A stretch of DNA of 32,000 nt, from positions 1,380,001-1,412,000 of the forward strand of contig OZ252279.1 in assembly GCA_965250005.1 (NCBI GenBank). The letters are read 5' to 3'. This stretch comes from Demequinaceae bacterium. Lineage in GTDB: Bacteria; Actinomycetota; Actinomycetes; Actinomycetales; Demequinaceae. The notes under the pieces were generated by a model. It had not been told where the DNA came from. It searched no databases and saw only the letters and a program-made list of their open reading frames with translations. Made by a program: the position numbers and the translations under genes. Position 1 is the first letter of the stretch, and every line of letters starts with the position of its first letter. Positions 1 through 14,518 of the stretch are shown piece after piece.

Positions 1-1685
1 CCAACAACCTTCTTGACCGCCTTGACGGAGCCATGGTTCCTCAGTCCAACGAAGGCTGCTTTCTGGACGAGCTTCGACACGGAGTCCTCGAACCGGACTC
101 CGTAGAAGGACTGTCCCGGGAATAGGTTGAACCCCACGGTGTAGACGATGATCGGAATCTCGAGCGCGTCAAGCGCCGCATCAGTCACATTCCACTGCCA
201 TCCGCTATTGCCATTCGGCGACGTGTCCGGCAAGAAAAGGCCGCCGCCACCTATCACGATCGCGTCGAGATTCTTGTTGGCCCAAAGTGCACGGTCCTCA
301 TCAAAGATCTGATGCGCATGGATGGAGGACCAGCGGGCGTCGGGAACCACCGTCTCGATTGATGTCCGCACTGCGATGGGGAGCATCACGTCGCCGAAGT
401 TGCCCTCGTCATCGACGTAGAAAGCTACGTGCCCTATCGCCGCGCCACTGCCTTCAGGCACGAGGCCATCGGTCAGGCGCGACTGCGCGATTCGCGAGAG
501 CACTAGCCGCGCCTTCCGCTGAGTCGGGTCGCGCGTGAGCGCTGACAGAGCAGCTTCTTCAGCAGCATCGTAATCTCGATAAACCCACTGCAAGTCGGCC
601 AGTCGCGAACGCGCTGCCGGGCCAATCTGACGCTGGTCCATTGCGAGAGTCAGCGCCAACTCCGCGTTAGCGCGCTTGGACAGCGCCTGTTGATTGGCGG
701 CAAGAGCCACAAACGACGATCCAGAAACCACTTGGGCTGTCGCGACGTGCAAACGAAGTGCCGTTTCCGCTGTTGCGAAATCGCCATCACGACCGTACCG
801 CCCCGATGCTGCACGCGGGTCGCCAAGATCCTCGTCGCGGAGCGATGCGAACGGAGCCGACATGTCCGCATAGAACTTCCGAATCCTCGATTTCTTGGGC
901 GAAATCTCGAGGTAGCGCCTCCAGAACAGCGCCGGCGCGATGTCGTACTCGTGCCACTCGTCTTCCGCGGCAGCGTAACCCGCCTCGCCGCCGCTCCATG
1001 GCTTGGTGGAGCCCGTAAAGTGCAAGATCCGGGTGTCTGCTGGCGGCTTCTGCCCCAGCTTAACCGCGCGCTTGACGAAGTTGTACTTCTTGTCGAGTTT
1101 CTCGTACTCGCCGTCGAGAACCGCAGACAACACGCCCTGGTCATGCCGCTCAAGATCGTATTCGCCTGACAGCCCGATCTCATCCATCTTCGCCACGAAC
1201 TCGTCGCTCATGGACCTACGGTCAAAGGTCATGACCCCGCTGTTGATCCGCCAGCCGCCGCGACTCTCAAAGTGCTGCGGCACCGCTCCAAAGGCCACAT
1301 CAGTGTCGACCAACTCTTTGATGTCGCCAAGGACCACCATGTCAACGTCGAGCGTGACCAAGCGGTCATAGTCGCGCACTCTGAACGCCTCAAGGATGTA
1401 GTACGCCTTCACAACGAGGTAATTTGTCAGATCACCCTTCGAGTACTTCGAGTACTGAGAGCCATCAACGCGCCGAAATACGAAGTTCGGGTACAGCAAC
1501 GAAATCCGAGCAATCGACTCGGGCTTCAAGTCGTCATAGAAGATGATGAAGTCGTGATCAACCCACGGATTCGTGAGCAATAGGCTCTTGATCAATACCT
1601 CGAACCCTTCGAGGTAGTTGTTGTCGACGTAGGACGCGAAGGCTACAGACGGCGACGATTCCGGTTGTGCGACAGCGGGCTTCAT
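1..1685 (-). CDS. Fusion protein: N-terminal glycosyltransferase family 8-like domain, helical/TPR-like linker, C-terminal polysaccharide pyruvyl transferase domain. The C-terminus runs off the left edge.
   Basis: Absent from the ORF track because it is open-ended. My translation of the minus strand from ATG 1685-1683 gives 561 stop-free codons down to position 3. N-terminal part: MKPAVAQPESSPSVAFASYVDNNYLEGFEVLIKSLL...LVTLDVDMVVLGDI...RINSGVMTF...ILHFTGSTKPW, which matches the GT8 DxD, NSG and HFxGxxKPW-type motifs. C-terminal part: ...GHVAFYVDDEGNFGDVMLPIAVR...LDAIVIGGGGLF..., which matches PS_pyruv_trans-type GNxGD and GGG motifs. It starts 16 nt downstream of the previous gene on the same strand. 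Confidence 0.75.
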   Translation of the reverse strand, partial: MKPAVAQPESSPSVAFASYVDNNYLEGFEVLIKSLLLTNPWVDHDFIIFYDDLKPESIARISLLYPNFVFRRVDGSQYSKYSKGDLTNYLVVKAYYILEAFRVRDYDRLVTLDVDMVVLGDIKELVDTDVAFGAVPQHFESRGGWRINSGVMTFDRRSMSDEFVAKMDEIGLSGEYDLERHDQGVLSAVLDGEYEKLDKKYNFVKRAVKLGQKPPADTRILHFTGSTKPWSGGEAGYAAAEDEWHEYDIAPALFWRRYLEISPKKSRIRKFYADMSAPFASLRDEDLGDPRAASGRYGRDGDFATAETALRLHVATAQVVSGSSFVALAANQQALSKRANAELALTLAMDQRQIGPAARSRLADLQWVYRDYDAAEEAALSALTRDPTQRKARLVLSRIAQSRLTDGLVPEGSGAAIGHVAFYVDDEGNFGDVMLPIAVRTSIETVVPDARWSSIHAHQIFDEDRALWANKNLDAIVIGGGGLFLPDTSPNGNSGWQWNVTDAALDALEIPIIVYTVGFNLFPGQSFYGVRFEDSVSKLVQKAAFVGLRNHGSVKAVKKVV

Positions 1686-1701
1686 TGCGTCTCCAAGGCC
1701 T

Positions 1702-3150
1702 CTAGCGAAGTGAAAGAACGAGGTCACTGGTTTTGGTCGCGTTCGCCATTACCCAGTCACGCTCGGCGTTGTAGTCGTGTGCGGTGGCTACGGGTAGATG
1801 CATGGCAGAGTCAAGCCGGAAGGCTCCGGACGTGTTGAAGTCGAACCCGATGAGATCGATCGCAGTGCTAACGTCCAGCAAGTCGACGAGCCGAAGCAAA
1901 TTGAACCCCGACGTCGGCACGTCCACAAGGCTCGAATCGCCTACGAGGTCCTTACCTCGCACGGGCCAGCGCAGGGTCGCATCACCGATGAAACCCTGCG
2001 CGTCCGAATCCAAATACTTGTTGACGGAAGCTCGCCATGCATTGAGATTGCCGCTAAACACTAGTCGGACGTCGACCGGTACGGACCAGTTGAAATTGTG
2101 CATGTGAATGGTCGCATGAAGTGACGTCTTTGATCCCGTATTCGGAGCGTCAATCTTGAATGAATTGAATCGCGCGACCACATCGTAGGAGTCGATCAGT
2201 TCGCCCGAACGCGATTCGGCAACGCGCTGGGAGTTCGCCACCAGGCAGACGGACTTTCCGGATAGGTACCTACGCAAACCCGCCGCGTCCATCGGCCGAA
2301 CCACATTCGCCGCCTCGCGCGTGACCTGAGGAAGAACCTCCAGTGGACGCGCCGCGACCGCCGCACGCGCAAGTTCCCGCGTCCGCACCGACGCATCCGC
2401 CCCAAATGCAAGCGCCTGCCTCAGCACCAAGTCTGCGGCAGCGGCGATCGAAGCGCGCCCAGTGAGCGGTTGCACACTGGTAACATCTGCGATCAGGTCT
2501 GCGTCGACCCGGGCCGATTCGACACCAGTGACCAGGTTCTGCAGCTTTCGATACAGCGCTGATACTGGGTCTCTTGACTTGTTTCCCTCGGCTTCTTGCA
2601 ACGCCTGTAGGAGCAACCCGTCCACAGCGAGCGCGGCCGTCGTCGATTCCGGCTCGTCAACACCGGTGAGTTGTGCAAACCGCGCTGCAGCGACGCGCGC
2701 AAGGTCCCGTCTATCGAGCGCGTCGTACGCTCGCGAGAGAATCTTCCATGCCGCTTTTGATTGCGGCCTGAGCTCAATGATCTGTTTCGCAAAGTCTTCA
2801 GCCAATTCTGGGCGCCCGACATTGAGTGCCGCTCGCGCAACGGAAAGCGCTCCATCAAGCGCGCGATTCTTGCCCAAATCAATCCAAGAATAGCGTCCGA
2901 GGGCATACCCAAGGCCATAATTGCTGTTCGCGCGCGCCGAGATCTCCGCAAGACTTCTCGTAGCGCGCACATATTTGACGCTGGAGGCGCGCCGATTATG
3001 TCCTTCGCGCTTGGCAACGTCGAGCGCGTCCGCGAGTGTCGACAAGAAGGAGAAATTGCGCCGGGAGTTACCCGGACCAAGGCGACGAAGGCCATGGGCC
3101 GCCCTTGACACACGCAGCACAATACGCTTCATATCAAGCAAAGTGAGCAT
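1702..3150 (-). CDS. Putative CMP-nonulosonate-dependent glycosyltransferase: about 290-aa helical/TPR-like N-terminal region plus a GT29/GT42-like sialyltransferase domain
   Basis: 482-aa ORF. Residues 302-329, CLVANSQRVAESRSGELIDSYDVVARFN, align with sialyl motif L (C-x-V-x-(G)N-S-x-x-L/V-x-x-S-x-x-G-x-x-I-D-x-x-D-x-V-x-R-x-N). Residues 412-436, PTSGFNLLRLVDLLDVSTAIDLIGF, resemble motif S (P-S/T-S/T-G ... I/V-x-x-x-G-F). Residues 458-463, HDYNAE, fit motif VS (H-x4-E). Start uncertain: the GGAG lies only 1 nt before ATG 3150, and in-frame TTG 3141 or ATG 3132 are alternatives. Confidence 0.7.
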   Translation of the reverse strand: MLTLLDMKRIVLRVSRAAHGLRRLGPGNSRRNFSFLSTLADALDVAKREGHNRRASSVKYVRATRSLAEISARANSNYGLGYALGRYSWIDLGKNRALDGALSVARAALNVGRPELAEDFAKQIIELRPQSKAAWKILSRAYDALDRRDLARVAAARFAQLTGVDEPESTTAALAVDGLLLQALQEAEGNKSRDPVSALYRKLQNLVTGVESARVDADLIADVTSVQPLTGRASIAAAADLVLRQALAFGADASVRTRELARAAVAARPLEVLPQVTREAANVVRPMDAAGLRRYLSGKSVCLVANSQRVAESRSGELIDSYDVVARFNSFKIDAPNTGSKTSLHATIHMHNFNWSVPVDVRLVFSGNLNAWRASVNKYLDSDAQGFIGDATLRWPVRGKDLVGDSSLVDVPTSGFNLLRLVDLLDVSTAIDLIGFDFNTSGAFRLDSAMHLPVATAHDYNAERDWVMANATKTSDLVLSLR

Positions 3151-3194
3151 ACTCCTCAGAGCGGTTTCGGGTGGAGGTTACGGCGGCCGATTCA

Positions 3195-4067
3195 TCAGCC
3201 ACCGATGCGGCGTAGCTTGCTCAGCGGGGCAAGCTCGCCCGGGAACACTCGCTTCACTCCGTCGCCGAGAGCGTCTTGAACAATGTGCACATCCCGGATC
3301 AGTGATGAGAAACCCTTCGGCTCAAGGGACGCCGCGTGGTCCGAGCCCCACATTGTGCGGTCAAGCGTCACATGCCGTTCAATTGCTACAGCGCCGAGAG
3401 TTGCGGCCGCAATGGAGATTTGAAGCCCCGCTTCATGTCCCGAGTATCCGGTCGGCAGGCCATAGCGCTCGCTAAGGGTCGGAATCATAAGCAGATTGGC
3501 CTCCTCCGGCGGAAGTGGGTACGTCGAAGTCGCGTGAAACAGAATCAGGTTTTCCTTGCCGAGAGTCTCAACGGCAGCGTCTATTTGCTCGATCGTCGAC
3601 ATTCCCGTTGACAGGATCACGGGCTTCCCCGTTTCCCGCAGTTTACTCAGCATCCCAAGATCGGTGACCGAGGCTGACGCAACCTTGTAGGCCACAACAT
3701 TCATCTTCTCGAGAAAATCTACAGACGGTTCGTCCCACGGAGAAGCGAACCAGTCAATACCCTTTTCGCGGCAGTAACTGTCGATCTCACGGTACTCGGC
3801 CTCTTCAAACTCGACCTTGTACCGATACTCCAGGTAGGTCATGGTTCCCCATGGAGTGTCACGTGGCGTGTCCTTCATGTGCTCTGGCGTTGATATCTCC
3901 GGCGTACGCTTCTGGAACTTGACGGCTTGCGCGCCTGCCTCAACTGCCACGTCAATGAGCTGCTTGGCGATCTCTAGCGAACCGTTGTGATTCAGGCCGA
4001 CTTCAGCGATGAAGTAAACTGGCTCGCCGACGCCAATCTCATTCGTGCCTATAGAAACCGTTGCCAT
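3195..4067 (-). CDS. neuB: NeuB-family nonulosonate (N-acetylneuraminate or Kdn, possibly 9-phosphate) synthase. Short form, apparently lacking the C-terminal SAF/antifreeze-like domain.
   Basis: 290-aa ORF. PVYFIAEVGLNHNGSLEIAKQLIDVAVEAGAQAVKFQKR ... VILSTGMST ... LFHATSTYP ... GYSGHE ... IERHVTLD is a typical NeuB/SpsE TIM-barrel signature. GGGGGA Shine-Dalgarno 8 nt upstream of the ATG. The protein ends about 55 aa earlier than the roughly 346-aa E. coli/Neisseria NeuB enzymes as I remember them. Confidence 0.9.
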   Translation of the reverse strand: MATVSIGTNEIGVGEPVYFIAEVGLNHNGSLEIAKQLIDVAVEAGAQAVKFQKRTPEISTPEHMKDTPRDTPWGTMTYLEYRYKVEFEEAEYREIDSYCREKGIDWFASPWDEPSVDFLEKMNVVAYKVASASVTDLGMLSKLRETGKPVILSTGMSTIEQIDAAVETLGKENLILFHATSTYPLPPEEANLLMIPTLSERYGLPTGYSGHEAGLQISIAAATLGAVAIERHVTLDRTMWGSDHAASLEPKGFSSLIRDVHIVQDALGDGVKRVFPGELAPLSKLRRIGG

Positions 4068-4163
4068 TGTGTACCTGTCCCCCTAGAACGCGCGCCTATC
4101 CGACCGGATGGCCCCCACCAAGGTACACGCGGGCAAGCAACAGCGCCACTTCTGGCTTCGCGC

Positions 4164-5327
4164 CTACCGGCTCCTGACCACGCGCCCAGAGAGTTCCCGA
4201 ATTGCGCCTTGTCCACCGCCTGCTGAAAGCACGATTCGCGCCGCGCGGAGGACCTCTGGCCGGGCGTCGGCAACGGCGACAGGCACGCCCACAGCCTCGA
4301 GACACTCGAGGTCGTTCACGTCGTTGCCCACATAGGCGATTTCCGCCAAGTTCAAACCCCTTTCGTGCGCCCACGCAGTCAACACCGGCAACTTCTCTTC
4401 GACGCCGTGGAGCACTTCGACACCAAGTTTCTTGGCGCGGGCAGCCACTACCGGGTTGATTTCGCTCGAGAGTATGAGCATCGGGACACCTGCACGGTGA
4501 AGCGACGCGATGCCCATCCCATCCGCTCTACTGACAGTGACCGCCTCGTGACCGTCTTGATCGACCCAGACTCGATCGTCAGTGTGAACGCCATCGAAGT
4601 CCATAACGACGGCTTCCACATCGATGGAATCTGGTGGCACGTCTACGGTGGACGCTAGAGACTGCGCGAGTTCAAGTTGTTCGGGCGTATCAATCTCCAA
4701 GCTTGTTCCTTCGGGAACAAGCACGGGAACGACGGTTCCGAAAAACCGGAACCTGGCGGCCATGAAGCCCGGAATCGCGAGCACGTAGAATGCGCCTGTT
4801 TCGCGATACTCCTGCTCACGGTCCTGGCGCCGCGGGCGCGCGTCCAGCGTGTGATTGACGGCGTCAAATCCCGAAGCAGTATGCTTCCACAGAAACGCGT
4901 CGCTCGGCGTCACCGCCATCGCGACGTCGGCGCTTCCCGAAGAAACCGCGTCCACCGCCTCGGCGACGGACTCGGGTGCCACAAACGGCGATGTTGCCTG
5001 GAGAAAGACTAGTACGTCGAACTTCTCGCCGCGGTCTGCCAAAGCCTCGATCGCATGCAGCAATGCGTCCTCGGAGCGCGCGGTATCGCTTGCGAGCTCC
5101 GCCGGACGATCCAAGACCGTCGCCCCAAAATCCACGGCGGCTTGAGCGATTTCCGGATCGTCAGTAGAAACGCAAACTGACTGAATCGCAGACACATCCT
5201 GTGCGAGTCGAATCGCCCGCCCGATCAATGGGACACCCCCCACTCGCTGCAGATTCTTGCGAGCGATTCCCTTAGACCCGCCGCGCGCCGGTATGACTGC
5301 CAGCACCCTGCTCTCACCGTTCGCCAT
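4164..5327 (-). CDS. neuA: Bifunctional CMP-nonulosonate synthetase (NeuA-like cytidylyltransferase) fused to a C-terminal HAD-IIIA KdsC-like phosphatase domain
   Basis: 387-aa ORF. The N-terminus, VLAVIPARGGSKGIARKNL...LQATSPF, is the CTP_transf_3 signature. The C-terminal roughly 160 aa contain VVMDFDGVHTDD (HAD motif I, DxDG), SS.. and YVGNDVNDL (HAD motif IV). GGAGGGAG Shine-Dalgarno 6 nt upstream. The start overlaps the upstream gene by 14 nt. Confidence 0.9.
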   Translation of the reverse strand: MANGESRVLAVIPARGGSKGIARKNLQRVGGVPLIGRAIRLAQDVSAIQSVCVSTDDPEIAQAAVDFGATVLDRPAELASDTARSEDALLHAIEALADRGEKFDVLVFLQATSPFVAPESVAEAVDAVSSGSADVAMAVTPSDAFLWKHTASGFDAVNHTLDARPRRQDREQEYRETGAFYVLAIPGFMAARFRFFGTVVPVLVPEGTSLEIDTPEQLELAQSLASTVDVPPDSIDVEAVVMDFDGVHTDDRVWVDQDGHEAVTVSRADGMGIASLHRAGVPMLILSSEINPVVAARAKKLGVEVLHGVEEKLPVLTAWAHERGLNLAEIAYVGNDVNDLECLEAVGVPVAVADARPEVLRAARIVLSAGGGQGAIRELSGRVVRSR

Positions 5328-6315
5328 CGCCTGCTCCCTCCATCGAAGCCAAATCCCCGAGCACAGCGCGCAACTCTGGGCGTCCTTCCGGAACCCACCA
5401 CTCGATTGGCACGGATGACATAGAAACCTGCGCTGACGGCAACACTCCAGACAGCACTCGCACCGCGCTGGTCGGAAGAGTGTAAATCTCTTTCACCGTC
5501 GCGCGACCAGCTAGGAAAAGTTCTACAGGCACCCGCGAGCGAATGACTCTGACGCCCGGAATCGCGGCCACGGCTTCGATTGTCTCGGCGTCCTCGCGCC
5601 GGTGAGGGTGGTACAGCGCACTACCGCGCCTCGAAATATCGCGCACCCAATCGAGATACGGTTCTGCGCGAATCTGGCCCGTGGCCACTAGGGATGTTCC
5701 AAGGATGACTCGCGCACTCTCAATTCGCACGCCGCCGAGACTCACGTCCGCCAGCCATCTGTGGCTGTTTTTCATGACTTCGTATCCCAACGCGCTTAGT
5801 CCAGTCACGTGTTGCGTCTCTTCGTAGACCGTAAAAATTGCTACGCGTCCCTTTCGCGCGACGCGCGAAATCTTTTGTCTAAGCCGCAGTCCGAGCAACT
5901 TCATCACAGGCGACTCGCGCTTGGACATTCGACTCAATCTTTTGTGGCGGTTCGCCAAGGTCGACGCAAGGTGCAACGTCGATGTGCCGTCGTCAACGAT
6001 GACCAGATCACGTGAACTACGAAGTGCGAAGTACGCGCGGAACTGTCCCGAATAGATATCGCCAACCAGTAGCTTCGCGCGCGCGCTGGGGGGCAGCCCG
6101 AAGATTGTACGCAGCGGTGGCGCAAATTCGACGCCCACGGGCAACTGGAGCTCTATAGCGGCAATGGTGGCCTCAAGTTGCCGCACTGCGTCGCGGGGAT
6201 AGATTCGCAGCGGCTCGCCCGTCTCTGCCGCGAACTCGACGGCATTGAGGATTTGCAGCGGAGACTCGACCCATGCGGCACGCACGGTTGGCGGCTTCGG
6301 CTCTGCGGCGGACAC
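5314..6315 (-). CDS. Putative bacterial-type (GT-B; GT38/52/80-like) sialyl/nonulosonyl-transferase
   Basis: The track ORF is 5314-6408. The likely true start is GTG 6315-6313, 2 nt after the TAG stop of the upstream ATPase gene, giving 333 aa. It contains LVIVDDGTSTL (D/E-D/E-G motif, nt 5986-5994) and ALYHPHRRED (HP motif, nt 5605-5610). These are the two motifs reported as conserved in bacterial sialyltransferases. There is also an N-terminal SPLQILNAVEF Rossmann-like start. Confidence 0.6.
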   Translation of the reverse strand: MSAAEPKPPTVRAAWVESPLQILNAVEFAAETGEPLRIYPRDAVRQLEATIAAIELQLPVGVEFAPPLRTIFGLPPSARAKLLVGDIYSGQFRAYFALRSSRDLVIVDDGTSTLHLASTLANRHKRLSRMSKRESPVMKLLGLRLRQKISRVARKGRVAIFTVYEETQHVTGLSALGYEVMKNSHRWLADVSLGGVRIESARVILGTSLVATGQIRAEPYLDWVRDISRRGSALYHPHRREDAETIEAVAAIPGVRVIRSRVPVELFLAGRATVKEIYTLPTSAVRVLSGVLPSAQVSMSSVPIEWWVPEGRPELRAVLGDLASMEGAGDGER

Positions 6316-6317
6316 GG

Positions 6318-7073
6318 CTACGTCGCCTTTTCGTAGGCGACACAGACCTGCTTCGGGTCGCCATCCATCTTGATTCGGCCACGATCCAACCAAATCACCC
6401 GAGAGCACGTCTCCCGAATTGTCCTCATCGAGTGGCTTACCAGGAATACTGTGCCGGCGTTCTCGCGCATCTCGCGGATCCGAGCCGCGCTCCGTTCTCG
6501 AAAATCCTTGTCTCCGACGGCCAGCGCCTCATCGATCAACAGAATCTCGTGATCTTGAGCCACTGCAATCGCAAATCGTAGCCGCGCAGACATCCCGGAA
6601 CTGTAGGTCTTCATCTGCATGTCCGCATACTCGGAAATCCCAGAGAACTCCAGAATGCGATCAAAATTTGTGTCAACTTCACGCGGGCTCATTCCCATCG
6701 CCAGGCAACCGAGACGGACGTTCTTCTCCCCGGACACGTCGCCAAGGAGAGCGGCATTGATTCCGAGCAACACCGGGCGCGCGGCACCCCTTACGGCTCC
6801 ACTAGTGGCCGGCGTTACTCCGGCGAGCGCGCGCATCAAGGTGGATTTTCCTGAGCCGTTACGCCCGATGATCCCAACGCTCTCTTCCTCGCGAACCTCA
6901 AAGGAAACGCCGCGGAGAGCGTGAACCTCGCGTATTCCGCGCGAAGCGCGGAAGAATTGGCGGCCTCGCGTGACGCGTCGACCCGTCGAGTATGCGCGGT
7001 ACGTGACGTGTACGTCATCTGCGACGATTGCCAAAGGCGTTCGCTCGGCCGATTCATTCCTATTCGCGCCCAT
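6318..7073 (-). CDS. ABC transporter ATP-binding protein, polysaccharide/teichoic-acid export type (TagH/KpsT/Wzt-like)
   Basis: Walker A GRNGSGKSTL, signature-like YSSGMSARLRFAIA, Walker B LLIDEALAVGD. Start trimmed to ATG 7073 (MGANRNESAERTPLAIV...), which overlaps the upstream permease stop by 14 nt. The track's longer N-terminus (to 7172) is Arg-rich and lies inside the permease gene. Confidence 0.9.
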   Translation of the reverse strand: MGANRNESAERTPLAIVADDVHVTYRAYSTGRRVTRGRQFFRASRGIREVHALRGVSFEVREEESVGIIGRNGSGKSTLMRALAGVTPATSGAVRGAARPVLLGINAALLGDVSGEKNVRLGCLAMGMSPREVDTNFDRILEFSGISEYADMQMKTYSSGMSARLRFAIAVAQDHEILLIDEALAVGDKDFRERSAARIREMRENAGTVFLVSHSMRTIRETCSRVIWLDRGRIKMDGDPKQVCVAYEKAT

Positions 7074-7917
7074 ACAGCTCTTCACCTCGCCAGAAGAAAA
7101 CCACGCCAGCCCCCGCGAGGACCACCGCTGCCGTGCCACATACCGCCCACGCGACGGGGGACGGGTCGGCACCTGTGATCAGTTGCGCGCGCAAGAGCTG
7201 GATGAAACTAGCGATCGGGTTGAGCCGCGCAATCTCCAACATTTCGGGACGATCTGCGAGAACCGCCTCCAGAGAATAGAAGATTCCACTCGAATAGAAA
7301 GCGACACGGTTAATCAATGGGATCAGTTGAGTGATGTCCCTCATGTGCACCGCAATTCGCGCAAAGACCAAACCGAGCCCTGCATTGAATATCGCCATCA
7401 AGAGCACAACGGGGATTACTACTAGCCATTTCCAAGTGATCGGCTCGCCAAACGAGACGACGATGACAAGCATGACCGCAAGTGCTGGGATGAATAGCAG
7501 CACCTGTTCAACCACAACAGCCAAAGGAAGCAGCACACGCGGGAAAGCAAGGCTGTGAACTAGCCCCTTGTTGCCGATCACCGATTTGGCGGTGGCTGTA
7601 AATGAGCGCGCATAGAACTGGTACAGGAACATGCCCACGATGAGAAAAGGGATGAAGTTTGCCGGGCGATACTCGCTCGGGAGAATGATTCCAAAGATGG
7701 TCCCAAAGATTGCTGCGAGGAGAATCGGCTGTATCACGACCCAACCCAAGCCCAAGCGATTCTCGCTCATTTGCGCGGATACTCGCGCGCGAGCGAGTTC
7801 GAACAAGAACGGGCGTCTCTGCCACGTCTCGGCAAAATATGCGCTCAGCGACTGACGCGCGCCTATTCTCGGCAACATCGCTGCCTCTTCGTCCAAACTA
7901 TGCGACATGCTCGTCAA
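7060..7917 (-). CDS. ABC-2 type polysaccharide/teichoic-acid export permease (TagG/KpsM/Wzm-like)
   Basis: 285-aa ORF with about 6 hydrophobic segments and typical ABC-2 features (...RRPFLFELARARVSAQMSENRLGLGWVVIQPIL...). The start at 7917 is TTG. ATG at 7908 is an alternative. Confidence 0.88.
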   Translation of the reverse strand: MTSMSHSLDEEAAMLPRIGARQSLSAYFAETWQRRPFLFELARARVSAQMSENRLGLGWVVIQPILLAAIFGTIFGIILPSEYRPANFIPFLIVGMFLYQFYARSFTATAKSVIGNKGLVHSLAFPRVLLPLAVVVEQVLLFIPALAVMLVIVVSFGEPITWKWLVVIPVVLLMAIFNAGLGLVFARIAVHMRDITQLIPLINRVAFYSSGIFYSLEAVLADRPEMLEIARLNPIASFIQLLRAQLITGADPSPVAWAVCGTAAVVLAGAGVVFFWRGEELYGRE

Positions 7918-7961
7918 TTCGTTCGACGTTCATCGATTCCCATTGCACACAGCAGATTCTC

Positions 7962-8225
7962 TCACGAATCAAGGCACCCATCTGCTAGCAACGCGTCCTG
8001 CTGTTCCGAGGCGGGTCGTCTGGTTTGAGCGGATATAGGCAACAGCATGGAACCAACCCTTCGCGCCCGCGCTGCTGTCACGCTAACCGCGAGCCACAAG
8101 TCGGTGCTGCGCACAGCCAGCACAAAGAAGGCCAACAAGGTCAAGGCGAGACCGAGGGGTAGCAGCGAGATTGAGGCAGCCGGCAACTGCACGGCGCGCG
8201 CGAGCGCAACGTTCACGACGTCCAT
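7962..8225 (-). CDS. Hypothetical small membrane protein (87 aa)
   Basis: ATG preceded by GGGGGAAGAAGAA (Shine-Dalgarno-like). A TAGATT -10-like hexamer ends 36 nt upstream of the ATG. One clear hydrophobic segment (LLPLGLALTLLAFFVLAV). No recognisable family. The Arg-rich C-terminus lowers confidence. Confidence 0.35.
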   Translation of the reverse strand: MDVVNVALARAVQLPAASISLLPLGLALTLLAFFVLAVRSTDLWLAVSVTAARARRVGSMLLPISAQTRRPASEQQDALLADGCLDS

Positions 8226-8259
8226 TTCTTCTTCCCCCAGTCAGCCCGCCTAGTACCCG

Positions 8260-8268
8260 GAATCTATC
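8260..8268 (-). promoter_or_regulatory. Promoter-like motif GATAGATTC (-10 hexamer TAGATT at 8266-8261 on the minus strand)
   Basis: The plus strand reads gaatctatc. The identical 9-mer recurs at 8915-8923 in the same position relative to another small membrane ORF. TAGATT fits the actinobacterial TANNNT -10 consensus. Confidence 0.35.
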
Positions 8269-8512
8269 GGGGAATACTCGCAACTGCGAGAGCAACATCC
8301 CTCATATCTTTGGCGCAAAATACTCTCACGCCGTCACAGTCAAAGGACCGCGCCAAAGTCGAGGCTGGCGCAGGCGCATTGAGACTATATGCCACGCAGG
8401 GGCATCAGAAACCCCAGGAGCCGGACGACTCAAACCAAGAGGCCGCGCGCTCGTGAGTATCCTTCATGCGGCACCGGCAAATCCTGCACCGCCTCGCAGG
8501 TCCCGACTGGTT

Positions 8513-8542
8513 CCGCCAATGAAGGCTACTTCGAATTGGCGG
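8513..8542 (-). terminator. Candidate hairpin terminator downstream of the 8555-8872 gene
   Basis: ccgccaat (8513-8520) pairs with attggcgg (8535-8542): an 8-bp stem with a 14-nt loop, 13 nt past the stop codon. There is no U-tract, so this is weak. Confidence 0.25.
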
Positions 8543-8554
8543 ACATTCCGGGCT

Positions 8555-8872
8555 CTACGCCTGCTCTTGCTCCAGTTGACCGAGCGTGGGCTCCACCGGC
8601 TCTAGCTCGATGCCCTTCTCCTCTAGCAGCGCGAGCGCACGGTCGCGTTGGTCGAGCGCCGGCCACTTGACGATGGCGAACACCAAAAACAGCAAGGGTC
8701 CGATCACTGGAACAAGCACCGCGATGACGCCCAGCCAGTGTGAATACCCTGCTTTGCGAGCCACCAACACTGCGGAGACCAGCAAGATGATTGTGAACAG
8801 GACGCTCAGTAGGGTGATCCAGCCGAGCCAATCGCTCACTAACTCCGACCAAGTGATGTTGTTGTCGTCCAT
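8555..8872 (-). CDS. Hypothetical small membrane protein (105 aa, 2 predicted TM segments, acidic C-terminal tail)
   Basis: GAGAGGAAG Shine-Dalgarno about 6 nt upstream of the ATG. Hydrophobic segments WLGWITLLSVLFTIILLVSAVLVA and WLGVIAVLVPVIGPLLFLVFAIV. A -10-like TAGATT ends 44 nt upstream of the ATG. Confidence 0.6.
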   Translation of the reverse strand: MDDNNITWSELVSDWLGWITLLSVLFTIILLVSAVLVARKAGYSHWLGVIAVLVPVIGPLLFLVFAIVKWPALDQRDRALALLEEKGIELEPVEPTLGQLEQEQA

Positions 8873-8911
8873 GCCGTCTTCCTCTCAGCGCCAGCACCCG
8901 CTGGCTGCTAC

Positions 8912-9991
8912 CTAGAATCTATCCGGGTACGTGGCTAGGCGCGCAAGTAGTTGCTCATTCTCTTCGCGCGAGCCGATGCTGATGCGGACACCCTCACCAC
9001 CAAACGGACGCACAAGAATGGCCGGGTCTGACGCCGCGAGGTGCTCGGCCGCGCGAGTCGACGCGTCAGCAACCGGCAGCCACACGAAGTTTCCTTGCGC
9101 CTCCGGAACCGACCAACGATCAGCCAGAAGCGCACTGCGCACTCGGTCGCGCTCGCCCACGACTTCGGCTACTCGTTCCAAGACCCTCTGCTCAACACTC
9201 AGCGCCGCGAGCGCCGCGGCTTGCGCCACCGCAGATACCGAGAACGGCGTGACGCACGCGCGGACCGGTGCTATCAGCTGCTCCGCGCCGAGGGCGTAGC
9301 CCACACGCAAACCCGCGAGGCCGTAGGCCTTGGAGAAGGTTCGCGTGACCACCACATTCGCGTGCGCGTCGATCAGGGCACGGCCATCAATGCTCTTGGG
9401 GTCGCGGACGAATTCGACGTACGCCTCGTCTACGACCACCAGGACCCGCTCAGGGATGGCCTTCATCAACTCGGCGAATTCGGCACTTCGGATCGCGGGT
9501 CCCGTGGGGTTGTTTGGGGTGCACACGAACACGACTCGAGTGCGGTCCGTGACAGCGGCGGCCATTGCCGAAAGGTCGTGGCGCGCTCCTTCGGCAAGCG
9601 GGACTGTAACCGGGACGGCACCGGCGACGGCAGTGATAATTGGGTACGCCTCGAACGAGCGCCAAGGAAAGACCACCTCGTCGCCCGCTTCGCAGTAAGC
9701 CTGCAGGATGTGGCCCAACACTGCGACCGACCCTGCGCTCACCGCTATTTGCGCAGGCGCGACCGCGTGCCGCGCGGCAAGCGCTTCCGTCAATTCAACG
9801 CTGAACATGTCTGCATACCGGTTCGACGTTGCCGCGGCTGCGGCCGCTGCCGCCGAAATCTCCGCGAACGGCGCAAAGGGCGTCTCGTTCGAGGAGAGTT
9901 TGATCGGCAACCGTCCGCCTTGCGGATTGCGGGCGCCCGGCACGTACTTAGGCATCGCCGCAATTGTTTTGCGTGGCTGCGGCTGAGTCAT
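8912..9991 (-). CDS. Class I/II PLP-dependent aminotransferase, histidinol-phosphate/aromatic aminotransferase family
   Basis: Trimmed from the 531-aa track ORF to ATG 9991 (MTQPQPRKTIAAMPKYVPG...), giving 359 aa. Motifs: LSSNETPF, CTPNNPTG, VVVDEAYVEF, and RTFSKAYGLAGLRVGY (PLP lysine). The 172 upstream codons are Arg/Pro/Thr-rich and antisense to the 10020-10418 gene. Confidence 0.85.
   Translation of the reverse strand: MTQPQPRKTIAAMPKYVPGARNPQGGRLPIKLSSNETPFAPFAEISAAAAAAAATSNRYADMFSVELTEALAARHAVAPAQIAVSAGSVAVLGHILQAYCEAGDEVVFPWRSFEAYPIITAVAGAVPVTVPLAEGARHDLSAMAAAVTDRTRVVFVCTPNNPTGPAIRSAEFAELMKAIPERVLVVVDEAYVEFVRDPKSIDGRALIDAHANVVVTRTFSKAYGLAGLRVGYALGAEQLIAPVRACVTPFSVSAVAQAAALAALSVEQRVLERVAEVVGERDRVRSALLADRWSVPEAQGNFVWLPVADASTRAAEHLAASDPAILVRPFGGEGVRISIGSREENEQLLARLATYPDRF
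8915..8923 (-). promoter_or_regulatory. Promoter-like motif GATAGATTC (-10 hexamer TAGATT at 8921-8916 on the minus strand)
   Basis: Same 9-mer as at 8260-8268. It overlaps the last codons of the upstream aminotransferase gene. Confidence 0.35.
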
Positions 9992-12293: not shown

Positions 12294-13703
12294 ATGCCGC
12301 TCGCGGACGTGACACCCGCCCTCGCCCTTGGCCCGCTCGACGGCAGGTACCGCACCGCGGTCGCCCCTCTCGTCGACCACCTTAGTGAGGCGGCGCTCAA
12401 CCGCGCGCGCCTGCACATCGAGGTGGAGTGGCTCATCCACCTGACGGACGAGCACGCCGTACCCGGGGCCGCCATGCTTACCGACGCGGACAAGAGTTAC
12501 CTCCGCGACCTCGTCTCCACCTTCGGCGCCGATGCGGTCGCTGAGCTAGCCGAGACGGAGCGTGTGACGGTTCACGACGTCAAGGCCGTCGAATACTTCC
12601 TCAGGAAGCGCCTCAAGGTGGCGGCCGAGGGTAGCGCGTTGCGCGGACTGGGCGAGCTGGTGCACTTCGCGTGCACGTCCGAGGACATCAACAACCTGTC
12701 GTACGCGGTCATGGTCAAGGGGGCTACACAAGACGTGTGGCTGCCGGCAGCGCGCGAGCTCGTCAACCAGGTCGCCGAGGTCGCGCGGGAGAACGCCGCG
12801 CAGCCCATGCTCGCGCGGACCCACGGTCAGCCTGCAACGCCAACGACGCTTGGCAAGGAGTTCGCGGTGCTCGCCCACCGCCTGGGCCGCCAAGTTCGGC
12901 GCATTGAGGGCCAGCAGTTCCTCGGCAAGATCAACGGCGCCACCGGAACCTATGGCGCGCATCTCGCGGCCGCGCCGGCAACGGACTGGACAGCCATCAG
13001 CCGGTCTTTCGTAGAGCACCTCGAGCTCGAATGGAACCCATTAACCACCCAAATCGAACCGCACGACTGGCAAGCCGAGCTCTACGCAGACGTGGCGCGT
13101 TTCAATCGCGTGCTTCACAACCTCGCGACGGACACCTGGACGTACATTTCGCTCGGCTACTTCGCGCAGGTGCGCGGCCAGGGAACCGTCGGCTCCTCGA
13201 CCATGCCTCACAAGGTCAACCCCATTCGATTTGAGAACGCCGAGGCAAACCTTGAACTCTCGTGCGCGCTCCTCGACTCCCTCGGCTCCACGCTGGTCAC
13301 CAGCAGAATGCAGCGAGACCTCACCGATTCGACCAGCCAGCGCAACATCGGCGTCGCTATTGGACATTCGCTGCTGGCGATTGACAACGTCCGCAAGGGC
13401 TTGGCGGGCCTGGACGTAAACCCCGAAGCGCTTGTGCGGGACCTCGATAGCAACTGGGAGGTGCTCGGCGAAGCAATTCAGTCCGCCATGCGCGCCGCTG
13501 GAATCGCCGGGACTCCCGGCATGGAGAACCCGTACGAGCGACTCAAGGACCTCACACGTGGGCGGCGAGTCGACGCCGCTGTGCTGCGTGAGTTCGTCGC
13601 GGGCCTAGGCCTGCCTGACGACGTCGCGGCTCGCCTCGCGGACATGACTCCCGCCACGTACGTGGGGGCTGCCGCAAGCCTGGTCGATTTCCTCGAGGAC
13701 TAG
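12294..13703 (+). CDS. purB: Adenylosuccinate lyase
   Basis: LGPLDGRYRTAVAPLVDHLSEAALNRARLHIEVEWLIHL resembles the E. coli-type PurB N-terminus. The fumarate-lyase signature SSTMPHKVNPIRFEN is present. Start trimmed from the track (12162) to ATG 12294. GTG 12279, with GGGAGA 8 nt upstream, is an alternative. Confidence 0.92.
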   Translation: MPLADVTPALALGPLDGRYRTAVAPLVDHLSEAALNRARLHIEVEWLIHLTDEHAVPGAAMLTDADKSYLRDLVSTFGADAVAELAETERVTVHDVKAVEYFLRKRLKVAAEGSALRGLGELVHFACTSEDINNLSYAVMVKGATQDVWLPAARELVNQVAEVARENAAQPMLARTHGQPATPTTLGKEFAVLAHRLGRQVRRIEGQQFLGKINGATGTYGAHLAAAPATDWTAISRSFVEHLELEWNPLTTQIEPHDWQAELYADVARFNRVLHNLATDTWTYISLGYFAQVRGQGTVGSSTMPHKVNPIRFENAEANLELSCALLDSLGSTLVTSRMQRDLTDSTSQRNIGVAIGHSLLAIDNVRKGLAGLDVNPEALVRDLDSNWEVLGEAIQSAMRAAGIAGTPGMENPYERLKDLTRGRRVDAAVLREFVAGLGLPDDVAARLADMTPATYVGAAASLVDFLED

Positions 13704-13705
13704 CG

Positions 13706-14491
13706 GTGTCCACGCACGTTGCGACCCGCCCGCGCCTGCGCGCGGAGGTGCTGATCGTGCTGGGGCTCAGCCTCGGATGGTCCGCCGTCCAGTCCGTGTG
13801 GATCCTCGTCGAACGATACTTGCGCGAGACGCCCATCGGCGAGCAAACCACAACTCTCAACCAGTCGGTCACTCAGGTCGACGTCATGGACTTGATCTAT
13901 CAACTGCTCCGGATCGGATTTTCTCTCATGCCCGTCCTGCTCGCTGTCTACCTGCTTGCCGGGCCAGGTATGACGGGCCTGCGGCGACTCGGACTGACAC
14001 GAGGCAGCGCCCCCGGCGAGAGCGTCCTCGGCGACGTGACCCGGGGCGCCGGACTGGCTGCGCTGATCGGCATCCCTGGACTGGGCGTCTACTACATCGG
14101 CAGGGCAATAGGACAGACCGTCTCTATCAATACCAGCGGCCTCCCAGACCAGTGGTGGACTGCGCTGGTGCTGCTGCTTGCGGCGGCTGCCGCCGCCGTG
14201 CTCGAAGAGACCGTGGCCGTCGGATACCTCGTGACTCGACTCCGCGAGATGGCATGGGGCGCCCCCGCGGCAATCGCCACGTCGGCCGTGCTTAGGGGGA
14301 GCTACCATCTGTACCAAGGCTGGCCCATGGCACTCGGGAACGCCGTCATGGGCGCCGTCTTCGCCTGGTATTTCGTCAAGCGAGGCAGAGTCGGACCCCT
14401 CATCGCAGCCCACGCCACGCTGGATCTGGTCGCCTTCGTTGGTCCCGAGGTGCTACCGGATTCCTGGCTCGCCGGAATCGGCCTCGTCTAG
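13706..14491 (+). CDS. CPBP family intramembrane glutamic endopeptidase (CAAX protease-like)
   Basis: 261 aa, multi-TM. VLEETVAVGYLVTRL (EExxxR motif), SYHLY and AAHATLDLV (His motifs). GTG start 2 nt after the purB stop. Confidence 0.8.
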   Translation: MSTHVATRPRLRAEVLIVLGLSLGWSAVQSVWILVERYLRETPIGEQTTTLNQSVTQVDVMDLIYQLLRIGFSLMPVLLAVYLLAGPGMTGLRRLGLTRGSAPGESVLGDVTRGAGLAALIGIPGLGVYYIGRAIGQTVSINTSGLPDQWWTALVLLLAAAAAAVLEETVAVGYLVTRLREMAWGAPAAIATSAVLRGSYHLYQGWPMALGNAVMGAVFAWYFVKRGRVGPLIAAHATLDLVAFVGPEVLPDSWLAGIGLV

Positions 14492-14506
14492 GGCCCCATC
14501 AATCCC

Positions 14507-14512
14507 TAGACT
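14507..14512 (+). promoter_or_regulatory. -10 hexamer TAGACT positioned for a leaderless transcript starting at ATG 14519
   Basis: TAGACT-ctcgggtc... read as TAGACT + 6 nt (cgggtc) + ATG. No Shine-Dalgarno sequence is present. Confidence 0.35.
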
Positions 14513-14518
14513 CGGGTC

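Follow-up and report, generated by a model that had tools for sequence, protein, structure and literature searches.

The 32,000-nucleotide (nt) stretch of Demequinaceae DNA analysed here (contig OZ252279.1, positions 1,380,001 to 1,412,000; referred to throughout as the window) harbors on its minus strand, at 1702..3150, a gene for a protein of 482 amino acids (aa). Judged from its sequence and from predicted structures, this is a bacterial member of the sialyltransferase fold of glycosyltransferase (GT) family 29, which is variant 2 of the GT-A fold, and it is cytoplasmic and free of disulfides. It probably acts as a transferase for Kdn (2-keto-3-deoxynononic acid), or for another nonulosonic acid, activated by cytidine monophosphate (CMP), and would build a wall polymer of the teichulosonic-acid type together with a GT8-pyruvyltransferase partner and export by TagGH. 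Sialylmotifs in a bacterial protein are already published and reflected in database names and are no surprise as such. The protein belongs to a known and annotated branch of the family, and the value of the locus lies in its compact operon, in the pairing of GT29 with GT8-pyruvyltransferase and in the wide actinobacterial spread of the family.

Domain layout and family placement

A sequence-only reading of this DNA, made without database searches, had proposed that animal-type sialylmotifs L, S and VS follow a long helical N-terminal region. The open reading frame (ORF) and the three motif positions given there match exactly in a coordinate check: motif L is the peptide CLVANSQRVAESRSGELIDSYDVVARFN (aa 302-329, nt 2164-2247), motif S is PTSGFNLLRLVDLLDVSTAIDLIGF (aa 412-436, nt 1843-1917) and motif VS is HDYNAE (aa 458-463, nt 1762-1779). 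With motif S taken up to aa 438, and TPR standing for tetratricopeptide repeat, the protein is laid out as follows.

1702..3150, minus strand: whole ORF, 482 aa, helical/TPR-like N-terminal domain and C-terminal GT29-type domain (ORF list; 56 close homologues)
2302..3150, minus strand: N-terminal domain, aa 1-283 (all-helical AlphaFold model; basic N-terminus; no transmembrane segment)
2665..2865, minus strand: best TPR-like stretch, aa 96-162 (TPR_14, SctY and designed-TPR matches, all weak)
1702..2301, minus strand: catalytic domain, aa 284-482, ~195 aa, stop codon within the coordinates (PF00777, profile, hhalign and Foldseek)
2164..2247, minus strand: equivalent of sialylmotif L, aa 302-329, C-L-V-A-N-S ... 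G-x-x-I-D-x-x-D-V-V-x-R-F-N (HMMER and hhalign against ST3Gal-I)
1837..1917, minus strand: equivalent of sialylmotif S, aa 412-438, P-T-S-G ... I-D-L-I-G-F-D-F (multiple alignment with ST3Gal-I)
1762..1779, minus strand: equivalent of sialylmotif VS, aa 458-463, H-D-Y-N-A-E (alignment with ST3Gal-I and PF00777 proteins)

The assignment of the C-terminal domain to GT29 is supported by three kinds of comparison. PF00777, the Pfam model of GT29 with a gathering score of 23 bits, reaches 21.8 bits (E 1.4e-4) against the full protein, which is below the cut-off, and 23.2 bits (E 5.2e-5), slightly above it, against the isolated C-terminal domain. In a scan of family members at E <=1 it was matched in 19 of 19 (best E 2.6e-7) and was the sole glycosyltransferase family matched; four homologues carry a precomputed PF00777 annotation. 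The match spans model positions ~58-105 only, i.e. the motif L region. A profile of the C-terminal domain searched against the PDB gave matches limited to ST3Gal1, ST6Gal1, ST8Sia3 and ST6GalNAc2. In hhalign the family profile aligned with pig ST3Gal-I (sequence verified against 2WNB) at 93% probability and E 2.8e-7, motif L being 37% identical over 49 columns, and the distant matches of the same profile are bona fide PF00777 proteins at 37-130 bits (P0196 at 130 bits).

The predicted fold points in the same direction. When an AlphaFold model of the domain alone (predicted local distance difference test score, pLDDT, 85; pTM 0.87) was compared with the PDB by Foldseek, ranks 1-30 were taken exclusively by ST6Gal1, ST8Sia3, ST3Gal1 and ST6GalNAc2 (best E 3.1e-6, prob 0.98-1.0, TMq 0.44-0.65), and from rank 31 onwards unrelated Rossmann-like folds appeared with prob <=0.35. 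The best match in a viral structure set was a 492-aa 'Glycosyl transferase family 29 [uncultured Caudovirales phage]' (BFVD A0A6J5NLG3; E 8.7e-14, TMq 0.82), and the sialyltransferases of herpesviruses, poxviruses and mimiviruses came next in that ranking.

The sequence-only reading had also named GT42 and Maf-like enzymes as the nearest bacterial relatives, and this part has to be given up. In a direct contest of profiles PF00777 wins, and neither the GT42 model (PF06002) nor the Maf/DUF115 MptE-like model (PF01973) is matched at E <=1 in any of the 19 family members. CstII (sequence verified against 1RO7) aligns with the family profile in hhalign at 2% probability, over 36 columns in the motif-L region only, and no CstI, CstII or Lst chain, and no GT42 structure at all, is found among the Foldseek PDB top 50. 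The nearest relatives are other prokaryotic GT29-like proteins. It is therefore very improbable that the protein functions as a GT42/Maf-type enzyme that moves sugars of the pseudaminic or legionaminic acid (Pse/Leg) type, for example in flagellin or S-layer glycosylation, with its GT29 likeness being that of a shared ancient fold. Such a function could draw on the GFDF(Y) and G-A-Y-R segments after motif S, which resemble S-G-I-D-F-Y ... S-Y-A-F of CstII. The likeness of LIGFDF to Cst that had been noticed earlier holds for the segment G-[IF]-D-F-Y, which looks alike, but does not extend to a significant profile similarity. MptE/Maf-like viral proteins do occur among the fold matches, as weak ones only (E ~0.01-0.2), and one relative, P0123, is fused to an MptE-like domain. 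Against a role of this kind also stand the lack of Pse/Leg pathway genes among the scanned ORFs and the polymer-export transporter of the ATP-binding cassette (ABC) type in the operon.

Residues were compared in an alignment of family members with prokaryotic PF00777 proteins, pig ST3Gal-I and CstII, with the numbering checked; conservation figures refer to 31 sequences of 32-55% overall identity. The correspondences with pig ST3Gal-I are these.

Motif L: N306/S307 with N150/S151
Motif L: N329 with N173
After motif L: G339-x-K-T342 with G-S-K-T
Motif S: T413-S-G415 with S271-T-G273
Motif S: L-I-G-F436 with L-Y-G-F
Motif VS: H458-D-Y-N-A-E463 with H319-D-G-D-F-E324

Each residue listed is either invariant or conserved to at least 90%. 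Invariant are C302, A305, N306, S307, G316, D320, D323, R327 and F328 in motif L and P412, T413, D432, L433, G435, F436 and F438 in motif S, while H458 and E463 reach at least 90% across the family. The motif S segment is not significant by HMMER alone (-0.3 bits), and its correspondence comes from the multiple alignment. Motif VS lines up as well with three peptides from bona fide PF00777 proteins, HDNKAE, HNYTRE and HDFDRE. The predicted catalytic base is H458, aligned as it is with His319, which we take to be the catalytic base of ST3Gal-I. The replacement of the motif L glycine that had been pointed out before is confirmed (VANS vs VGNS); A305 is invariant in the family, and the glycine is kept in most other prokaryotic GT29-like proteins. 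Motif S contains no Cys that could form the L-S disulfide of the animal enzymes.

That the motifs match by chance, or that the protein is a catalytically dead scaffold, is hardly credible. The full-length Pfam score lies slightly under the gathering threshold, and one member, P0056 (406 aa, with precomputed TPR Pfam domains), has the predicted catalytic His, the Glu of H-x4-E, the Asn of R-F-N and the P-T-S-G all altered; it may be an inactive paralogue, as far as its sequence suggests. However, the predicted catalytic and CMP-binding residues are conserved across the 31 sequences as described, and the resemblance is not a chance one because profile, profile-profile and fold evidence independently point to GT29. 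A GT42/Maf-type function and a chance motif match are thus effectively excluded.

The helical nature of the N-terminal region, also part of the sequence-only reading, is borne out by the full-length AlphaFold model (m0484c2b7fd61, pLDDT 83.5), in which aa 1-283 form 12 helices with pLDDT mostly 80-95, followed by the alpha/beta domain. Its description as TPR-like fares less well by sequence, where the repeat character is weak. TPR_14 of Pfam matches aa 102-140 at E 0.037, SctY of NCBIfam aa 105-160 at E 9e-5, and designed TPR proteins in the PDB aa 111-170 at E 0.003-0.006, and the signal is confined to about two repeats (aa 96-162), the remaining N-terminal part being helical without a repeat signal. 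A full-length Foldseek search also finds the TPR-plus-GT proteins OGT and SPY (E ~1e-3, low TM). The length of this domain is kept across the family alignment and its sequence is poorly conserved. Nine Arg/Lys residues lie within the first 32 aa, and a hydrophobic N-terminal segment is absent.

The operon and the proposed function

Seven genes lie closely packed on the minus strand, the GT29-like gene being number six. The other six, in order of transcription, are listed here.

7060..7917, minus strand: TagG/Wzm-like ABC-2 permease (PF01061 E 6.6e-16; Wzm/RfbD model E 8e-27)
6318..7172, minus strand: TagH/Wzt-like ABC transporter ATPase, start codon uncertain (PF00005; TagH model E 1e-47 to 4e-51, below cut-offs)
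5314..6408, minus strand: orphan protein, 333 aa in its database form (P0208), no Pfam, NCBIfam or PDB match
4164..5327, minus strand: fusion of a NeuA-like CMP-nonulosonate synthetase and a phosphatase of the haloacid dehalogenase type (PF02348 E 6e-25, aa 10-181)
3195..4067, minus strand: NeuB-family nonulosonate synthase, 290 aa (PF03102 E 1.8e-81)
3..1685, minus strand: GT8 retaining glycosyltransferase, TPR-like middle and polysaccharide pyruvyl transferase, cut by the window edge (PF01501, PF04230)

The phosphatase half of the NeuA fusion (aa 236-384) matches the KDN-9-P phosphatase model NF058599 and KdsC equally well (E 3e-27 each). The NeuB homologue covers positions 2-270 of the 329 of TIGR03569, below the model cut-off, and lacks the C-terminal SAF/antifreeze-like part. 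The Bacteroides Kdn pathway runs via a 9-phosphate, and by analogy the short NeuB together with the NeuA-phosphatase fusion suggests such a route here. The last gene starts 16 nt downstream of the GT29-like gene and encodes a GT8 domain with a DVD motif (PF01501, 74.8 bits, aa 20-231) and a truncated pyruvyltransferase domain (PF04230, 31.9 bits, aa 429-555).

This gene order was compared across 80 related genomic loci with flanks cut at 10 kb. In 79-80 of them the next gene after the GT29-like one is the GT8-TPR-pyruvyltransferase fusion, a pairing that is seemingly undescribed. Within 10 kb, NeuA or NeuB is present at 35-38 of the 80 loci, which is a lower bound since the cluster runs past the 10-kb flank in many Streptomyces loci. 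Two Demequina loci (L006 and L007) have a gene order identical to that of the window.

From these genes the following mechanism can be proposed. The NeuB-type synthase and the NeuA-phosphatase fusion encoded upstream would supply a CMP-activated nonulosonic acid as donor. The CMP moiety would be held by motif L (N306, S307, N329) and motif S (T413-G415), and with H458 as general base the sugar would be moved with inversion, giving an alpha-ketoside on a hydroxyl group of a hexose in a growing lipid-linked glycan. The partner would then add, through its GT8 domain, the alpha-hexose that receives the next Kdn and, through its pyruvyltransferase domain, a pyruvate ketal, and in this way the GT29 protein and the GT8 fusion might build the repeat of a teichulosonic-acid-type wall polymer, with the TagG/TagH-like ABC transporter exporting the finished chain. 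The helical domains of both enzymes most plausibly serve enzyme-enzyme assembly or oligomerisation, if the TPR-containing capsule polymerases are a guide; the roles in polymer-length control, acceptor recognition or membrane association that the sequence-only reading had suggested for the N-terminal region may also apply.

The donor is most probably CMP-Kdn. Kdn is favoured because NeuA is fused to a phosphatase of the Kdn-9-P/KdsC type, because the Pfam or NCBIfam scans of window ORFs revealed no UDP-GlcNAc 2-epimerase or Pse/Leg pathway gene, and because teichulosonic acids with Kdn have been reported as wall polymers from actinomycetes, namely from Streptomyces and Promicromonospora (PMC7831098, PMC6801904). 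The polymer of Promicromonospora citrea has the repeat ->6)-a-Glc-(1->6)-a-Glc3SO3-(1->4)-a-7,9Pyr-Kdn-(2-> (PMC6801904). It combines alpha-hexose, alpha-Kdn and a pyruvate ketal on Kdn, which are the three chemistries encoded by the GT29/GT8-pyruvyltransferase pair, and Promicromonospora belongs to the same order (Micrococcales) as the window organism. A bolder version, which we put forward only tentatively and think rather doubtful as it stands, is that the family and its GT8-TPR-pyruvyltransferase partner are the polymerase so far lacking for the repeat units of pyruvylated Kdn teichulosonic acids, both in Micrococcales and in many Streptomyces, with the TPR-like domains docking both enzymes into a single alternating machine.

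The same fold and mechanism could also serve CMP-N-acetylneuraminic acid (CMP-Neu5Ac) as donor, so that a true sialic-acid polymer or capsule and not a Kdn polymer would be made. We consider this unlikely, if the least unlikely of the alternatives. The best NCBIfam synthase model for the NeuB homologue is indeed NeuB_NnaB (E 5e-77), but the score of 259 bits is far under the equivalog cut-off of 399.65. NeuA-like cytidylyltransferases often take several sugars, and genes resembling polysialyltransferases (PF07388) accompany the family in 62 of the 80 loci. However, neither NeuC nor a gene supplying N-acetylmannosamine was found among the window ORFs scanned, and both the type of the fused phosphatase and the Kdn content of the reported actinobacterial teichulosonic acids speak for Kdn.

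In another arrangement, which seems to us quite unlikely, the protein would be a nonulosonate transferase that adds a single priming, branching or capping residue, while polymerisation falls to the orphan 333-aa protein and/or, in other genomes, to GT38-like or DUF6716 proteins. Both in the window and in Demequina the orphan belongs to the same operon as NeuA and NeuB, and it has a relative after NeuB in Streptomyces; GT38-like genes are common neighbours; and the published accounts of the Kdn-polymer cluster of S. coelicolor name no GT29-like gene. On the other hand, the orphan bears no detectable glycosyltransferase signature, and the strict pairing of GT29 with GT8-pyruvyltransferase suits a two-sugar repeat. 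The window scans revealed no GT38-like or DUF6716 gene, and hence no nonulosonate transferase other than the GT29-like protein can be recognised there.

Several observations count against the CMP-Kdn transferase as we propose it. The Pfam score is borderline for the full-length protein, the similarity to the animal enzymes rests almost wholly on motif L at the sequence level, and sialylmotif III ((H/Y)-Y-(Y/W/F)-(E/D)) has no counterpart between motifs S and VS, where the family carries G-A-(Y/F)-R with an invariant R445 instead. Cellulomonas loci are without NeuA or NeuB within 10 kb. Other candidate nonulosonate transferases occur in these clusters, namely the PF07388 (GT38-like) genes, present within 10 kb in 62 of the 80 loci, and the orphan protein. 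The literature searched contained no biochemical assay of any enzyme of this bacterial GT29 branch. Finally, the published S. coelicolor description of SCO4873-4882 mentions no GT29-like gene, from which it follows that a GT29 enzyme is not obligatory for Kdn polymers.

The orphan protein itself might be an unrecognised enzyme of nonulosonate polymer synthesis, as far as its sequence and position suggest, perhaps even a transferase with a fold not yet known, although no detectable signal speaks for the latter. It has 92 homologues, all named 'hypothetical protein', with invariant V-V-G-D-A-F-S-G, V-D-D-G and P-H-R-R-E motifs. It occupies the same position in the Demequina loci, and a relative 25-35% identical to it is encoded downstream of NeuB in Streptomyces loci, which may be the position of SCO4882. 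The idea that it is a hidden GT-B sialyltransferase found no support: 20 members gave no Pfam match and the profile no PDB match. Likewise, hhalign gave no match between the orphan and the PF07388-like or DUF6716 proteins of Streptomyces, and BLAST against P0098, a fusion of GT38, TPR and GT29 domains, found nothing.

Some features of the operon are noted for completeness. Between the longest TagH and TagG ORFs there is an overlap of 113 nt, and the orphan ORF exceeds its database form by 31 codons; the mechanically assigned start codons of the TagG, TagH and orphan genes are probably too far upstream. A promoter scan of window positions 1-9000 gave nothing beyond the level of shuffled sequence, and a terminator scan of the same region only weak terminator-like sites inside genes. 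The glycopolymer operon (window 1-8000) has a G+C content of 0.55-0.61, compared to 0.60-0.68 for most of 9000-32000. Lower G+C is common in surface-polysaccharide loci that were acquired or exchanged horizontally.

Distribution, fusions and significance

Bacterial GT29 sequences have been described by Petit et al. 2018 (Sci Rep 8:2946, PMC5811610); these are proteobacterial (alpha, gamma, epsilon) and lack the transmembrane domain and the disulfide cysteines, and Actinobacteria are not described in that set. The name 'glycosyltransferase family 29 protein' is used by NCBI/UniRef for orthologues from Cellulomonas rhizosphaerae, Cellulomonas sp. PhB150, C. edaphi and Demequina iriomotensis. In a scan with one genome per species, relatives were found in 334 GTDB species, mostly Actinomycetota. 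The view of the sequence-only reading that GT29 is essentially a eukaryotic and viral family is therefore not tenable. The best 80 relatives come mostly from Streptomyces, Cellulomonas, Demequina, Actinacidiphila and Isoptericola, and an exhaustive profile search (E <=1e-3) yielded 1,697 clusters at 50% identity. In addition, 129 IMG/VR viral contigs encode relatives, all at <=38% identity; phages or prophages may carry the family, perhaps to modify host wall polymers. In the literature searched we found no assignment of a function, a polymer or a partner gene to the actinobacterial GT29 branch, and no Kdn transferase of teichulosonic acid.

Natural fusions tie the GT29-like domain to CMP-nonulosonate chemistry and to pyruvylation. 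In P0138 and P0123 it is fused to a NeuA-like cytidylyltransferase, P0123 carrying an MptE/Maf-like domain as well; in P0181 it is fused to a pyruvyltransferase; and P0098 joins a GT38-like domain, TPR and the GT29-like domain. Other partners within the fusion set (P0138, P0123, P0181, P0098, P0187, P0196) are GT2 plus methyltransferase and GT92, and a tandem pair of GT29-like domains is found in P0173, P0196, P0197 and P0199.

Most Streptomyces and Cellulomonas loci also contain PF07388 genes (GT38 alpha-2,8-polysialyltransferase-like), alone or fused to GT4, plus DUF6716 genes. Examples of such neighbours in two of the loci, in the coordinates of those loci, are given here.

13021-14556, minus strand, in L050: PF07388/DUF6716 neighbour
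15489-16838, plus strand, in L050: PF07388/DUF6716 neighbour
6127-9027, minus strand, in L003: PF07388/DUF6716 neighbour

One 24-kb contig (L009, JBCECL010000060.1), from a metagenome-assembled genome labelled Brevundimonas sp. and thus binned with the alpha-proteobacteria, holds a Cellulomonas-like cluster of GT4-GT38, GT29 and GT8-pyruvyltransferase genes; its GT29 domain is 57% identical to that of the window and its GT4-GT38 gene 61-72% identical to Cellulomonas. This cluster reflects either a binning error or horizontal transfer.

Outside the operon, window 8912-31843 encodes ordinary housekeeping and envelope functions. These include a 531-aa aminotransferase-domain protein, adenylosuccinate lyase, a CAAX protease-like protein, an 823-aa MprF-like LPG_synthase_TM protein, a thiol peroxidase/redoxin, DnaB, a FemAB-family protein and a class A penicillin-binding protein. 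The DnaB is 77-83% identical to DnaB of Demequina spp., which makes the source a Demequina-like member of the Micrococcales.

Teichulosonic acids are major wall polymers in many actinomycetes, and the enzymes that insert Kdn into them have not been assigned. If our functional reading is right, the window holds a compact gene set for this purpose, consisting of exporter, orphan, Kdn activation, GT29-type transferase and GT8-pyruvyltransferase. Should the polymerase-pair version prove true, the protein would be the first member of GT29 to have a defined function in bacteria, and a Kdn-polymerising one. Animal GT29 members are hard to express, and a small, soluble, disulfide-free GT29 domain would be a convenient bacterial model and possibly a tool enzyme. 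The wide actinobacterial distribution also bears on the origin of the eukaryotic sialyltransferases, and an abundance of the family in hundreds of species of Actinomycetota would weaken the published idea of an alpha-proteobacterial (mitochondrial) origin of eukaryotic GT29.

Comparison with known systems

The closest comparison is with the bacterial GT29-like proteins, which have in common with the window protein a catalytic domain with motifs L, S and VS and the absence of a transmembrane anchor and of an L-S disulfide. Two Cellulomonas orthologues (e.g. WP_118767016.1 of C. rhizosphaerae) are 38-45% identical over ~79% of the query and, with 481 aa, have the same two-domain length. The orthologue from Demequina iriomotensis (WP_156162168.1) is shorter and 58% identical over 43% of the query.

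With animal GT29 enzymes (pig ST3Gal-I, 2WNB; human ST6Gal1, 6QVS/4JS1; ST8SiaIII, 5BO6; ST6GalNAc2, 6APL) the window protein shares the GT-A variant 2 fold (Foldseek prob 1.0, TMq 0.45-0.65) as well as P-[ST]-[ST]-G ... G-F of motif S and H-x4-E of motif VS. As in the animal enzymes, its mechanism is expected to be inverting and independent of metal, with a CMP-sugar as donor. There are, however, distinct differences. The catalytic domain is smaller (~195 aa vs ~270 aa), the motif L glycine is replaced by alanine, and motif III and the disulfides are missing. Whereas the animal enzymes are type II membrane proteins of the Golgi, the window protein is cytoplasmic and carries a helical/TPR-like N-terminus in place of the stem region. 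Its acceptor is probably a bacterial wall glycan and its donor probably Kdn, unlike in animal GT29. The missing disulfide and Golgi topology separate bacterial from eukaryotic GT29 and are no ground for exclusion from the family, because Petit et al. report the same absence in bacteria.

GT42 enzymes (CstII, 1RO7; CstI, 2P2V) resemble the window protein in being bacterial and cytoplasmic, in the GT-A variant 2 superfold and in a G-N-x at the domain N-terminus. Their catalytic His lies in G-H-S, in contrast to A-H-D-Y-x-x-E of the window family.

TPR-bearing multi-domain polymerases of capsules or teichoic-acid-like polymers are known from Actinobacillus (Cps1B/Cps3D) and Haemophilus influenzae b (Bcs3). 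With these polymerases, and with OGT and SPY, the window protein has in common the combination of a glycosyltransferase with a TPR-like helical array, and the capsule polymerases make their product in the cytoplasm for export by an ABC transporter. Unlike in the capsule polymerases, the two glycosyltransferases of the window system reside on separate proteins, each with a TPR-like segment, and their folds are GT29 and GT8 instead of TagF-like or GT4.

A known cluster for a Kdn polymer is that for the teichulosonic acid of S. coelicolor, SCO4873-SCO4882 (Ostash et al. 2014, cited in PMC13011467; PMC3479208). It resembles the window operon in its NeuA and NeuB genes and in a product that is a phosphate-free anionic wall polymer. 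The positions of the hypothetical proteins SCO4879 and SCO4882 would fit the DUF6716 and orphan-like genes of the Streptomyces loci. In the published descriptions SCO4874-4878 appear as a membrane GT, a GT2, a GtrA protein, a hypothetical protein and a GT2, and none of them is GT29-like or a GT8-pyruvyltransferase. SCO4876 and SCO4877 had been considered as the S. coelicolor orthologues and were ruled out, the published descriptions being GtrA-family and hypothetical protein, respectively, with SCO4875 and SCO4878 as GT2. Compared to this cluster, the operon of the window is a far more compact version, with the TagGH exporter inside it.

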